Shown here: one piece after another, positions 52,497 through 56,379 of the stretch | Layout of the letters: the number at the start of each line of letters is the position of its first letter | How positions within the stretch are numbered: position 1 is the first letter of the stretch | Source: a virus | Lineage: Duplodnaviria > Caudoviricetes | IMG/VR virus record: IMGVR_UViG_3300011989_000257 | Span: 192,001 to 256,000 of that record | Direction: 5' to 3' (one strand) | Length of the DNA stretch: 64,000 nt | Made by a program: the position numbers and the translations under genes | Notes under the pieces: generated by a model | Told to the model about the DNA's origin: nothing | Database searches by the model: none | The model's input: the letters and a program-made list of their open reading frames with translations, nothing else

Positions 52497-52528
52497 CAAA
52501 TATATGAAAAAAAAATGAGACTACCAAA
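52497..52528 (-). promoter_or_regulatory. Bacteroidetes promoter with hairpin (would terminate the iscB-array transcript)
   Basis: TTTG-N20-TATATTTG; atgagactac...gtaatcccat. Confidence 0.8.
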
Positions 52529-52554
52529 AAAGTAATCCCATATTTAATTTTATT

Positions 52555-52693
52555 TAACTAATCTAGTACAATGCACTTTTTTCCACGATGTATAAAATAT
52601 ATTGTTATAATTATTACTATTAATAAACTAATCTAGTACAATTTGATTATCTTCAAAGCAATTATTATTATTAACAAACTAATTCAGTACAAT
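52555..52693 (-). CRISPR. CRISPR-like mini-array downstream of iscB (3 repeats, core ATTGTACTAGATTAGTTT)
   Basis: Repeats at 52555-52572, 52625-52642 and 52676-52693 (two extend to 34 nt, 30/34 identical); unique spacers; repeat complementary to the 5' end of the omegaRNA scaffold. Confidence 0.7.
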
Positions 52694-52741
52694 TCGTGTT
52701 AGATGCGCATGCCACACAACAATTGCAGTTGTATGACATTT

Positions 52742-54016
52742 TTATTCGTAAGTGAACTGGAGTAAATGACTTCCGTGCATTCTTCTTAAGAATTTAACAT
52801 CAGCACTTCTTACAGTAAAAGGTGTCATCTTACCTTTACCGTTTGGTTTTCTCGTAACAAAATTACCATTAATATCCTTCAGATACAACCTACCATTTGA
52901 ACTTCCACCAACAAAACACTCTATTCCATTCCACAAAACCAAATCACCTTTCTGTAACCTACTTTTACCTATCATATGACTAGTAGTCATGGCCTGACGC
53001 ATACCTCCTTTTTTTGGAACTTGTTTATGTAGAGACCTAGTGTGTCTTCTGTTAAGTTTGTATTGATAATATCCACCAAGTCTCTCGGCAGATGTGTTAT
53101 CAGCTATAACGAATGCATCACTAGTATGTGACTTCTCAATTCCATTTCTTAAACGATTAGCCTTAGTCATATAGCCGTATGTGGTTTTGACATCGCCATA
53201 TGTTTCTTTTGTTTTTTTGAAAAGTATATTACCAATTATTGATACTGAAGTCTGGTTTTTGAGACTAGGGAGTTTTTTAGCATTAAGTTCAAATTCCCCT
53301 TTGTGCAGCCTTTTGTGACATTCTTCACACAATGTGATAAGATTTTCTACAGTATCAGTACCCCCTTGTGAACGATATTTGATATGATGTACATTTAACG
53401 TTTCACATCCACTTTTACCATGACAATGCTGGCACTCATGTCTGTCCCTAGTCAGAACATATTCTCTAGCATTCTCAAAACCAAATAATTCTCCTTGTTG
53501 ATATTCCTCACCTTGAATTTCTGGATTCTTTATTTTTTGAGTGTCAAATGGTGCAACCTCAAGAATAATACTAGAAATAGGAAGAATGTTATAAACACGT
53601 TGGATTGCTTTCTCGTGTTCATTTAACCTATTTCTTGAGGTTGGTGTCAACCACCCATCTTGTCTTTTTCTGTTATCGAAACGTGGCTTTCTATATCTAG
53701 TCTTTCTGCTACGTCTAGTTCTTCTAGATTCGAGTCTAGAAAGCATAAGTTCTGGAATCTCTTTGCTACGAAGTTCTACTTGTGCGGCATAAAGCTCCTT
53801 AGAAGATGTCGAAGCAGATAAACCTATATATTTAGAACCAGTATCAACCCCAAGTTTTATTTCTTGTAGATTTTCCTCAGAAGTGTAATCGAGCTGGATT
53901 GTGAAAGGGATGGTAGAAACAACATGTGCTTTACCTTCCTTTAAAAGCCTCCTAACTTTTCCATGACGAGTTGTTGGCATTATAGGTTTGCCATCTTTGT
54001 TTAACACATAAACCAT
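52742..54016 (-). CDS. iscB: IscB RNA-guided endonuclease (PLMP-like, split RuvC, bridge helix, HNH)
   Basis: GKPIMPT, GVDTG (RuvC-I), RRTRRSRKTRYRKPRFDNR, ILEV (RuvC-II), HHI..RSQGG..NLITLC..CH (HNH), SHTSDA (RuvC-III). Confidence 0.95.
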   Translation of the reverse strand: MVYVLNKDGKPIMPTTRHGKVRRLLKEGKAHVVSTIPFTIQLDYTSEENLQEIKLGVDTGSKYIGLSASTSSKELYAAQVELRSKEIPELMLSRLESRRTRRSRKTRYRKPRFDNRKRQDGWLTPTSRNRLNEHEKAIQRVYNILPISSIILEVAPFDTQKIKNPEIQGEEYQQGELFGFENAREYVLTRDRHECQHCHGKSGCETLNVHHIKYRSQGGTDTVENLITLCEECHKRLHKGEFELNAKKLPSLKNQTSVSIIGNILFKKTKETYGDVKTTYGYMTKANRLRNGIEKSHTSDAFVIADNTSAERLGGYYQYKLNRRHTRSLHKQVPKKGGMRQAMTTSHMIGKSRLQKGDLVLWNGIECFVGGSSNGRLYLKDINGNFVTRKPNGKGKMTPFTVRSADVKFLRRMHGSHLLQFTYE

Positions 54017-54034
54017 CTTTTTATCTTATTAAAA

Positions 54035-54218
54035 ATGCTGTAAGCCACCAACTTAATGGTGTTGTGTACCCATCGCTAATGTTGGTTGGAGGTTTTTACT
54101 AGAAAGACATTCTCGCTAGCCGCAGGGTTTGGAGCTTGGGTAACAACTCCAAAGTGCCTATATATTCTCCCTCAACGTAGTCCTCGAAGGACTTAAGCTA
54201 ATCGTACTAAATTAGTCT
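54035..54218 (-). ncRNA. omegaRNA scaffold beginning with an anti-repeat (tracrRNA-like)
   Basis: Directly upstream of iscB; omegaRNA-type blocks GATTAGCTTAAGT..GACTACGTT..ATAGGCAC..CCAAGCTC..AACCTCC..AACATTAGCGATGGG; 3' boundary approximate. Confidence 0.8.
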
Positions 54219-54222
54219 AGTG

Positions 54223-54254
54223 CAAAGATACCAAAAAAACATGAGATAAACAAA
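54223..54254 (-). promoter_or_regulatory. Bacteroidetes promoter for the omegaRNA/iscB transcript
   Basis: TTTG-N20-TATCTTTG; hairpin catgagata...tatttcatg. Confidence 0.85.
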
Positions 54255-54270
54255 TATTTCATGCTAAAAA

Positions 54271-54334
54271 AGATTAATATAGTGCAATTAACATTAGATT
54301 TAAGGTATAGTATATAAACTAATATTAGTACAAT
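54271..54334 (-). repeat. Two further, more degenerate copies of the IscB-associated repeat upstream of the promoter
   Basis: ATTGTACTAATATTAGTTT (54316-54334) and ATTGCACTATATTAATCT (54271-54288). Confidence 0.65.
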
Positions 54335-54353
54335 ACCATTATTAACGCTACAT

Positions 54354-55118
54354 TCATGTATTAACGCTACACTCATAGATTGTGACCAATTGATTAGGGT
54401 CTAAGTTTTTTATGAATCTGTCATAAAACGTTGCAATCCAATGTTGTTCCCCTTCCTTATCACTATCTATATCTGTCCAACCGTTCTCATCAACAAAGGC
54501 ATAGTTCCAATAAGATGTACTATATGCAACATAATTCTTTTTATTCTTGAATTTAGAGAAATATACTGTTTTATCTTTCATTGATTCGTATATTTTCTCT
54601 TCTTCATCATTGGTTGGTTCTCTGCCATCCATTACCATTTCCCAAGCAGCCTCGTATAGTCTCGGTGGCTCATTCATGGAATCCCAATCAATGTCACTTG
54701 CCTTTGCTGAATATGACTCACTACCATCTTTTAACTTTAATGGTAAAGAAAAATTTCTTCCCACCCTAGCAGTTTTCCAATGACCTTCAGTGTTTTCAGT
54801 TGATAATGCATTACCATTCTCATCATAATACATGCCATCTGTTAATTCTCTATAGTAGTCAAAAGGTGTTAACTTCTTAAGAATATTTATCCTCTCTGAT
54901 AAACTATTCTTAATAGAGCCATCTATACCGATAGTATCGGCATTAGATAGTATGTTATTCAATGCCTTTATTGCATTATCCAAGTATTTATCAGCTTTAA
55001 GGTATTCATATTTGACATAAGGTTCAATTTCTAAATCCATTGAATACTTTGCCATTATTTCTTTATGGTTTTCTCCAATTACCATGACGGAGAAAAACTT
55101 ACTCGCAGTATTAGCCAT
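54354..55118 (-). CDS. Hypothetical protein
   Basis: 254-aa ORF. Confidence 0.75.
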   Translation of the reverse strand: MANTASKFFSVMVIGENHKEIMAKYSMDLEIEPYVKYEYLKADKYLDNAIKALNNILSNADTIGIDGSIKNSLSERINILKKLTPFDYYRELTDGMYYDENGNALSTENTEGHWKTARVGRNFSLPLKLKDGSESYSAKASDIDWDSMNEPPRLYEAAWEMVMDGREPTNDEEEKIYESMKDKTVYFSKFKNKKNYVAYSTSYWNYAFVDENGWTDIDSDKEGEQHWIATFYDRFIKNLDPNQLVTIYECSVNT

Positions 55119-56379
55119 TATTTGTAACGTTAATTGTATAAGTTAGGTCTTCGATGTTAGCATTAAAGCCTTGCCGTATTTGTTCCATTTGCGCTTCGTT
55201 TAATTGAAAATATCCATGATTAGGAACTTCTGCAATTCCAATATGCGGCTCATCTGCAATTCCTCCATCATCTGCCATTGGTCTATCCATATCAATGTAG
55301 TCACGTTGTTTCCTTGGTGCAGTTTCTTCGCATATTATATTGTCAAATGTGTGACCGTTATTTTCCAATGTCTTGGAGGTATCAATTCCAAAGAATGCCT
55401 CCAATTGAGAGTTTACTTGCATCATTCCATAAGATTGTAATGAGGAGAATACCATGTCATTTATTTTATCAGTGTGCGACATTTTAAACCTTCCATAAAA
55501 CCAAATGTAAGGTTTTGATTCCTCATCTATTAGTCTTTCATATATCTTATCCATTACTTTTCTCTCATTTGAAAAGTTGGATGCAGTTTTTTCATTGTTG
55601 GAAAACCATTTACTTTTTTTAAAAGCATTTGTTCCAGGATATGCAAAACTTGGACATGTGCTAGTTATTACGCAATTAATTTTATATTTACTGAGTATAT
55701 CATTCAGTTCATCTTCTTTATATTGTGGTGCTTCATTCTCCCAATACAACTTTTTGCCATATAACTCTTCTTGAGCAAGTTTCCACTCTTTATCCATTGA
55801 TACACTTCCACCAATACATAGACAATTAAATGTTTTAAGAGAAACTACTGAATAATCTGGTATAGTTTTGATGTGTTCATAGTCAATTTTCTTGTCATTG
55901 AATATTGAAGGATTATCATTATTGCCTCTTAAAAAGAGTATGAAACAATTATTGTCCGAAAGACTTTTTTCTAACTTGGTGAATGTTTCTTCGTAGTATT
56001 TTTTACTTTTAGTACCAATACCACAATTACCACTAACTATTACCACACTGTTATCAAAACTTGAATCTAATTTTTTAGATTTACCGTGCGGAGAAGATTT
56101 AGAGAAAAACGTTTCAAATATTTCATCATTAGGGTTTCTTCTCCTTGCTTGACGTGGACCGTGAATAGGATGTGGCATACCAAATCCACCCAAACCACCT
56201 TCAATAGGTTTTTCGCTACGTTTTTTCAATCTTTCTTGTCTTTCTATCTCTTTTGGGTGCTCTTCTTTTGTGAATTTAGAAATGTTAGATGTTATGCTAT
56301 TAATGAATCTATCCATATTTCTATCTATGTTACCAAACACATAACATTTTTCGATTTTTTTAAAATTATAAACATTCAT
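55111..56379 (-). CDS. Metallophosphoesterase-fold protein with degenerate metal ligands
   Basis: GNIDR, SGNCG, RGNND, TSTCP and YGRF replace GDxHG, GD, GNH(D/E), xH and GHxH; IGGSVS.DK block retained. Confidence 0.7.
   Translation of the reverse strand: MNVYNFKKIEKCYVFGNIDRNMDRFINSITSNISKFTKEEHPKEIERQERLKKRSEKPIEGGLGGFGMPHPIHGPRQARRRNPNDEIFETFFSKSSPHGKSKKLDSSFDNSVVIVSGNCGIGTKSKKYYEETFTKLEKSLSDNNCFILFLRGNNDNPSIFNDKKIDYEHIKTIPDYSVVSLKTFNCLCIGGSVSMDKEWKLAQEELYGKKLYWENEAPQYKEDELNDILSKYKINCVITSTCPSFAYPGTNAFKKSKWFSNNEKTASNFSNERKVMDKIYERLIDEESKPYIWFYGRFKMSHTDKINDMVFSSLQSYGMMQVNSQLEAFFGIDTSKTLENNGHTFDNIICEETAPRKQRDYIDMDRPMADDGGIADEPHIGIAEVPNHGYFQLNEAQMEQIRQGFNANIEDLTYTINVTNNG

Follow-up and report, generated by a model that had tools for sequence, protein, structure and literature searches.

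IscB nucleases of the canonical kind work with a one-piece omegaRNA, in which the guide stands 5' of the scaffold, beside the 5' strand of a stem called P1. How does an IscB obtain its guide where that strand is missing from the RNA encoded next to its gene? The question is raised by a 64,000-nt stretch of DNA, here called the window, which comprises bases 192001-256000 of a 412.5-kb IMG/VR virus record (IMGVR_UViG_3300011989_000257) rated complete. The record is the genome of a jumbo phage of the rumen; a T4 gp20-type portal in the genome confirms its phage identity, and megablast against GenBank phages gave zero matches. Pieces of the iscB locus are seen in bovine and sheep gut RNA libraries. 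Within the window, iscB lies in a mobile cassette of 1778 bp (52557-54334); this cassette and all features described at or within its edges are on the minus strand. It is probably an IscB cassette that spreads in jumbo phages of the rumen without TnpA and whose omegaRNA guide is functionally split, so that one scaffold RNA would be served by several separately encoded guides.

Scaffold, anti-repeat and repeats in the window

The iscB gene (52742-54016) encodes a protein of 424 aa with a PLMP/RRXRR N-terminus, a split RuvC domain, an inserted HNH domain and a divergent C-terminal part, which is the part that reads the target-adjacent motif (TAM). Pfam matches it to RRXRR (3e-63) and HNH (3e-11). 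In alignment to OgeuIscB structures the RuvC-I Asp, the RuvC-II Glu, the HNH His-His/Asn, the zinc cysteines and the RuvC-III His/Asp are all conserved; past residue 329 the two proteins do not align. The preliminary description of this DNA, made from the letters alone, had reported intact RuvC and HNH residues, and both comparisons agree with it. The protein is set apart from Cas9 by its length and by its alignment to IscB, Cas9 being matched weakly. It is the one IscB of the 412-kb genome. That description had also noted the lack of tnpA and cas1, which extends to the whole genome: no TnpA (Y1 transposase) was found, although control genomes matched and IS200/IS605-type ends were not searched for, and no Cas1 was found, Cas2 not having been searched for.

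Upstream of iscB lies an omegaRNA scaffold (54061-54200) with a pseudoknot, central stems and a nexus, which would form the body of a RNA resembling trans-activating CRISPR RNA (tracrRNA). The Rfam HEARO model (RF02033) matches 54229-54061(-) at 61 bits (E 2e-11), compared with a gathering score of 83; this shortfall is explained by the absence of the model's P1 hairpin. The covariance model places the 18-mer at 54218-54201 on the 3' strand of P1, finds no P1 5' strand in cis, and aligns well at the positions after P1. The scaffold proposed earlier is thus recovered, and an omegaRNA in one piece with P1 in cis is not what the model finds at this locus. The 18-mer, termed the anti-repeat (54201-54218), is unpaired when the scaffold is folded alone, and it would form the 5' end of the scaffold RNA. 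The scaffold shares about 80% nucleotide identity with those of two related loci (L006 and L007).

The anti-repeat is preceded by a terminator-promoter module of a type that is generic in this phage (54223-54263), made up of a hairpin (54263-54240), a T-run and a TAnnTTTG box (54230-54223). At least 69 intergenic modules of the genome consist of a terminator hairpin, a T-run and a TAnnTTTG box, usually followed by CA; the box is one that we take to be the Bacteroidota promoter type. At six of these modules exactly 4 nt separate the box from an ATG, and this fixed offset suggests leaderless mRNAs. A54218, the first base of the anti-repeat and the fifth past the box, lies at the same offset. The two leaderless ATGs from which this start had been argued earlier (22904 and 39228) are among the six.

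Three direct repeats follow iscB, each preceded by a 16-nt candidate spacer. Unit 1 (52676-52709) consists of spacer candidate 52709-52694 and repeat R1 (52693-52676), unit 2 (52625-52658) of spacer candidate 52658-52643 and repeat R2 (52642-52625), and unit 3 (52555-52588) of spacer candidate 52588-52573 and the terminal repeat R3 (52572-52555). If G:U pairs are allowed, R1-R3 are the reverse complement of the 18-mer: R1 and R2 each form 18 pairs with it, three of them G:U, and R3 forms 17. The duplexes reach -19.6 to -21.3 kcal/mol (z of about -8 against shuffled repeats), so counts and energies both bear out the pairing of 18/18, 18/18 and 17/18 positions first described. When repeat and scaffold are folded together, the check suggested at that time, every spacer-repeat unit comes to lie on the anti-repeat, and the complex gains 14-20 kcal/mol compared with the RNAs folded apart.

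The 18-mer pattern has four matches in the window compared with 0.35 expected, and none of 100 shuffles reaches four; the matches are R1, R2 and R3 on the minus strand and the inverted anti-repeat itself (54201-54218). No other good copy of the repeat occurs elsewhere in the 412-kb genome. Exact matches to the window-type repeat beyond this locus were likewise absent from IMG/VR, in a scan that possibly left out this genome's own record.

Two weaker partners of the anti-repeat stand upstream of the scaffold. The repeat at the left end of the cassette, rep1 (54316-54334), pairs with the anti-repeat at -16 to -17 kcal/mol with a 1-nt bulge. A degenerate second copy, rep2 (54272-54288), was found by repeat search; by our own count, 14 of its 17 positions can pair.

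Co-variation and spacer turnover in five lineages

A protein search returned five clusters, at a threshold of 90% identity, whose members are 77-95% identical to this IscB; the next matches are at most 58% identical. The DNA of all five lineages was read, namely the window with L019, L006/L011, L007/L012, L192/L193 and L194-L199. L019 begins inside iscB and covers no upstream side. In the tree all five lineages fall into a single clade, supported at 100/100 and set on a long stem.

Wherever a contig covers the 5' side, the order is the same: a promoter box, 4-8 nt, the anti-repeat, the scaffold, iscB and 3-10 direct repeats (three in the window, 4-10 in the relatives). The last repeat of an array is slightly degenerate and merges into TAA, with a terminator-promoter module behind it. 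In the five arrays with a known anti-repeat, all 33 repeats pair with their own anti-repeat, at -13 to -22 kcal/mol. In a cross test of three lineages the cognate repeat/anti-repeat duplex was the most stable.

Repeat and anti-repeat also change together. By our own tally, standard pairs fill 45 of 45 lineage-by-position cells in the first nine pairs, and compensatory changes, with both sides altered, are found at four of these nine positions: A:U is replaced by G:C at positions 6 and 9, C:G by U:A via U:G at position 7, while position 8 occurs as U:A, C:G and G:C. Position 3 is U:G in every lineage. Since G:U pairs become A-C mismatches on the opposite strand, the pairing is read on this RNA strand.

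The loss of the cis P1 stem belongs to the whole clade. HEARO scores are 52-67 bits in the five lineages, with P1 missing (L006, L007, L192 and L194 besides the window), compared with 97-140 bits and a complete cis P1 at 17 more distant IscB loci; the relatives with one-piece omegaRNAs share at most 60% identity. Pairing of upstream with downstream sequence was found at none of about 28 IscB loci outside the clade. The sister group encodes 414-aa IscBs of 53-58% identity; in two of its members (L200:1759-1946 and L201:14-221) the HEARO scores of 82-85 bits are near the gathering score and P1 is short or weak. Judged from sequence, this reduced P1 is a possible intermediate state before the split.

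The array changes far faster than the gene before it. L019 encodes an IscB 95-97% identical to that of the window and has the same downstream gene, yet it carries eight repeats, not three, and different spacers, two of which are exactly 16 nt long. Sixteen nucleotides is the known guide length of IscB. In two further samples, RNA-library contigs part from the window sequence as soon as iscB has reached its stop codon; from there one matches L019 and the other differs again. Among 40 spacers of six arrays, sharing between lineages is no greater than in shuffles, and a likeness of spacer 1 to spacers of L019 and L192 was rejected as it falls within the shuffle range. Spacers have a G+C content of 40%, compared with 34.5% for the genome (P of about 0.002). 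By these measures the sequence between the repeats behaves as spacers. Spacer turnover in related phages had been named as a check on the idea of one tracr-like scaffold served by several exchangeable guides that resemble CRISPR RNA (crRNA). This idea gains from the turnover in L019, from the layout common to the five lineages, from the co-variation and from the one-piece HEARO RNAs outside the clade.

L019 also carries a solo repeat (L019:967-987) just past the promoter of the gene downstream of its array, in the 5' untranslated region (UTR), a place where no repeat is found in the window. This solo copy may be the mark of a further flank-capture event, as described below, or a decoy.

Insertion site and working model

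The cassette starts with rep1 and ends with R3 (52557); the next three bases are the native TAA. The insertion splits the upstream gene between its final sense codon and its TAA. Three complete sister phages of about 410 kb (G001-G003) have both flanking genes but not the cassette between them; there the upstream gene is 82% identical, a single module separates it from its neighbour, and no IscB was found anywhere in the three genomes. A contig from a bovine RNA library joins 54359 to 52520 via 41 other letters. As this contig holds the empty allele, empty and occupied alleles co-occur in one sample.

The iscB genes of the window and L019 (L019:1-519) have 96.7% nucleotide identity, compared with 80% for the adjacent backbone (L019:762-2363), and the array between gene and backbone cannot be aligned. 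On this comparison, a recent transfer of the nuclease gene from one phage backbone to a diverged one seems likely. The other four lineages occupy a different neighbourhood, close to the homologue of the 375-kb region of the genome studied here (G000). In L006, L192 and L194 the gene immediately before the cassette is T4 gp13-like, and G000 has a lone module at that place; in L007 another gene separates the two. In every case the IscB cassette abuts a terminator-promoter module.

Immediately 5' of rep1 lies the native 3' end of the upstream gene, which provides a 16-nt guide candidate derived from the flank (G0, 54335-54350). G0 differs by one mismatch from the empty site in each of the three sister phages (L155, L156 and L157), where TAA comes next. 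G0 and rep1 together make up the classic OMEGA homing arrangement, here without TnpA: the guide is the left flank, and it would be aimed at the allele that lacks the element. With its presence or absence at an orthologous site and a predicted specificity for the empty allele, the cassette has the properties of the homing type.

The DNA itself shows the layout of the locus, its pairing and co-variation, the turnover of spacers, the presence or absence of the cassette and the G0 match; from these we infer RNA ends, processing and cleavage as follows. The phage promoter would fire at or beside the anti-repeat, giving a scaffold RNA that opens with the P1 3' strand and has no guide. The same transcript, or read-through, would carry iscB and the array as far as the terminator at 52541-52515. 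Guides would be separate units in the 3' UTR of iscB, each with about 16 nt of variable sequence and an 18-20-nt repeat that serves as P1 5' strand; the window would add one guide unit upstream of the scaffold. Pairing of repeat and anti-repeat would rebuild P1, and the resulting dual RNA, similar to omegaRNA, would load IscB. The 16 nt 5' of the repeat would then act as guide, and IscB would cut DNA that matches it, next to a TAM recognised by the divergent C-terminal part of the protein. It is proposed that the array escapes self-cleavage because the repeat occupies the TAM position. During co-infection G0 would direct cutting of sister phages that lack the cassette, resulting in homing or exclusion, and the array would add further targets.

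How such arrays are built in the absence of Cas1-Cas2 can be answered only tentatively. Insertion-flank capture is one conceivable route, though a doubtful one: the left end of the cassette, which contains the P1 5' strand, would form a new unit wherever it came to lie beside new DNA, and recombination between cassettes would stack such units behind iscB. If this were true, the clade would be a living example of omegaRNA becoming tracrRNA and a CRISPR-like array, and a multi-target weapon for homing or exclusion.

Counter-evidence, alternatives and known systems

Several observations weigh against a split guide. RNA-library contigs from two studies bridge 54296 to 54069 and so reach about 70 nt upstream of the proposed start of the scaffold RNA; this can be explained by read-through transcripts or by DNA in the libraries. 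The start at 54218 has the analogy to leaderless genes as its sole basis. Repeat periods are 51 and 70 nt in the window and 34-152 nt in the relatives, so a strict CRISPR-like period is not seen; compact units with 16-nt spacers make up some of the units only. Since the array is irregular and has no uniform unit, it is an assumption which part of each gap is guide. The split may itself be incomplete in the window, where rep1 is a candidate partner in cis. Finally, no credible protospacer of any array spacer was found in the phage itself, in five relatives, or in IMG/VR or GTDB genomes, where scans for exact 16-mers are dominated by noise. Two further observations on the RNA libraries bear on neither side. 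A shared stop of two RNA contigs near 54289-54296 was considered as a RNA end and rejected, as a strain indel explains it. Parts of the array without contig cover in four RNA libraries are uninformative either way.

The searches for targets covered several sets of sequences. The window spacers have no target in their own 412-kb genome at 0-1 mismatch; spacers 1 and 3 match five related phage genomes no better than a reversed-pattern control; no spacer matches any of the fetched loci and their flanks; and the gene-end flanks at the second insertion site match none of the arrays. Candidates from broader scans were rejected. Exact 16-mer matches in IMG/VR (0, 0, 6 and 103) are all in unrelated contexts of mixed G+C content, 30 exact matches of spacer 1 in GTDB genomes include none in Bacteroidota, and matches of one L019 spacer in portal genes fall in aquatic T4-like phages at chance frequency. 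The upstream flank guide is the one spacer that matches related viruses. Of the competing phages or host DNA that had been suggested as targets, a match is seen for G0 only, at the empty site of sister phages; the array spacers gave no credible target.

When 19 foreign spacers were compared with G000, two matches with one mismatch were found (0.3 expected), one of them in the T4-type portal gene. This portal gene (G000:C1), which lies outside the window, holds a copy of the repeat with three mismatches at 84479-84496 (L004:1501-1518); 300 nt away, at 84779-84794 (L004:1801-1816), is the one-mismatch match to the first L007 spacer. The match is probably due to chance, and it is the sole hint in these sequences of cross-targeting among cassette-bearing phages.

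The explanation that competes best with a split guide is a one-piece omegaRNA, formed in the window by read-through of the terminator. Such a RNA would run from G0 through rep1, a 97-nt P1 loop, the anti-repeat and the scaffold, and the downstream repeats would be relics or spares of little function. This is consistent with several findings: rep1 pairs with the anti-repeat and in the cis fold closes P1 over a 97-nt loop that contains rep2, the terminator and the promoter; G0 comes from the insertion flank, as the guide of a classical IscB element does, and has its match in the empty site; the RNA-library contigs span 54296 to 54069; and the P1 loops of HEARO RNAs may be long (L008). However, the supposed loop holds a terminator and a conserved promoter, and the downstream repeats pair better than rep1 (-20 vs -16 kcal/mol) and co-vary with the anti-repeat. 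In four of the five lineages no partner stands upstream, this window being the one place where an anti-repeat partner is found outside the array, yet these lineages keep 4-10 well-pairing downstream repeats. A one-piece RNA is compatible with the split guide in the window but is no substitute for it across the clade, and as a full account it is unlikely. The cis and trans forms may coexist in the window, while the layout of the other four lineages would allow the trans form only. The earlier claim that the RNA has no guide of its own is qualified in the same way: the promoter abuts the anti-repeat, but rep1, 116 nt upstream and equipped with a flank-derived guide, could complete P1 in cis on read-through.

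A second alternative would make the 18-mer the guide of an omegaRNA without P1 and the repeats its DNA targets; by binding or nicking its own flanks, IscB would regulate the cassette or mobilise it. The position of the 18-mer would fit a guide if P1 had simply been deleted, repeats are found at both cassette ends (54334 and 52572), and complementarity at the DNA level is 15 of 18. Yet the model sets the 18-mer on the 3' strand of P1, and the repeats look like the 5' strand that P1 has in canonical HEARO RNAs. The three to four G:U pairs of each duplex would be mismatches in a RNA-DNA hybrid; the one at repeat position 3 would fall on the TAM-proximal side, where IscB tolerates mismatches poorly (PMC9755519). 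The unrelated 16-nt sequences between repeats vary freely, as spacers and not targets do, and self-cleavage at up to ten sites per genome would be costly. This alternative is very improbable.

Least probable of all is that the repeats serve recombination or transposition, or act as regulatory motifs of a generic phage type, and are complementary to the 5' end of the scaffold only incidentally: repeats bound the cassette, the cassette sits among highly repeated phage intergenic modules and L019 has its solo repeat in a neighbouring gene's 5' UTR, but the motif is restricted to the IscB locus in 412 kb and absent from IMG/VR apart from the locus, strand-specific co-variation that preserves G:U pairs in five lineages is unexpected for protein-binding sites, and the genome has no transposase.

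CRISPR-associated IscBs were reported in 2021 (Altae-Tran et al.) and one of them, DelIscB, has been engineered (PMC12660989, PMC11610941). DelIscB has its array upstream, in the same noncoding RNA as the anti-repeat, and processing into two RNAs is still open (PMC12660989; PMC11610941). The cassette shares with it a small IscB, a repeat/anti-repeat duplex that replaces the one-piece P1, guides of about 16 nt and the lack of an adaptation module; in both, the 5' end of the scaffold holds an anti-repeat that pairs with the direct repeats. In contrast to DelIscB, compared here by its description only, the anti-repeat directly follows a promoter, and the array is 1.5 kb distant, on the far side of iscB, not upstream of and contiguous with the scaffold in one noncoding RNA; the units are irregular, with 18-20-nt repeats and gaps of 16-134 nt; and the setting is a homing-type jumbo-phage cassette with a flank-derived guide.

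Other known systems share parts of the arrangement. Canonical IscB-omegaRNA elements (OgeuIscB, HEARO RF02033) have the same protein family, the scaffold after P1, a 5' guide beside the P1 5' strand and a left-flank guide (here G0 with rep1); they differ in having P1 in one piece, whereas the cassette has several alternative 5' strands and no TnpA. In the TnpB-to-Cas12 lineage, 'functional RNA splitting' is documented for TranC, and TnpA-independent OMEGA homing has been described (PMC13565253). As in TranC, the guide RNA of a transposon appears split into tracr-like and crRNA-like parts, by an independent, recurrent event; unlike TranC, which has 3' guides, the cassette belongs to the IscB/Cas9 lineage and is phage-borne. 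With the dual RNA of type II Cas9 it shares a repeat/anti-repeat duplex beside the guide, a scaffold encoded beside the nuclease gene and a degenerate terminal repeat; it differs from that system in its 424-aa nuclease without a recognition (REC) lobe, the lack of cas1, its 18-20-nt repeats and its 16-nt spacers. Free-standing homing endonucleases of the T4 Seg/Mob type and TnpA-independent OMEGA homing (PMC13565253) resemble it in that a nuclease cassette is present or absent at one intergenic site in relatives, is far more conserved than its flanks and has a specificity (here predicted) toward the empty allele. Unlike Seg/Mob endonucleases, it is proposed to recognise its target by RNA and carries more than one guide. 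HEARO/IscB loci are common in phages, which hold about 16% of them, and are rarely linked to TnpA (PMC9755519). A literature search found no paper that links IscB to phage mini-arrays.

The locus had been described as an intermediate between IscB and Cas9. This holds as an analogy, but in the tree ordinary IscBs surround the clade, which is a derived tip; it is consequently a parallel to the IscB-to-Cas9 transition and not a step toward Cas9. CRISPR-associated IscB was already known. New here, as read from sequence, would be a split at the promoter, an irregular, hypervariable downstream array without an adaptation module (no Cas1), a homing-type jumbo-phage cassette and a guide in the ancestral flank position. 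In miniature, the cassette would repeat the change from a one-piece transposon guide RNA to crRNA and tracrRNA. The change of a one-piece IscB guide into crRNA/tracrRNA with a spacer array has been inferred from very few natural cases; the clade would be a second one and appears to be independent. Its useful traits are a split point marked by a promoter, a hypervariable array without adaptation genes, and a flank that serves as guide beside an identifiable empty target. These make the origin of spacers and their biological use, in homing or exclusion between co-infecting jumbo phages, directly testable. On the practical side, the cassette offers a 424-aa nuclease with a guide format that would be naturally dual and multiplexed, and with a divergent TAM-reading domain.

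The genes that flank the cassette, at 55111-56379 and 54354-55118, have no Pfam or PHROG match. The native terminator-promoter module (52497-52541) has a hairpin at 52541-52515, located by a terminator scan, and a box at 52504-52497; it resembles the upstream module (repeat family D2) and is the sole module in empty alleles. It would both terminate the array transcript and drive the next gene. The last repeat and this terminator weakly match the Bacteroidetes FopS small RNAs in Rfam (E 3.6), a candidate that was rejected; those RNAs regulate polysaccharide use and are linked to RbpB (PMC11697453). At the left junction, alignment to empty alleles reveals that the last 19 bp of the upstream gene are duplicated in tandem (54340-54377, repeat family D4). 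This duplication alters the last residues of the gene product, and its first copy supplies a new stop.

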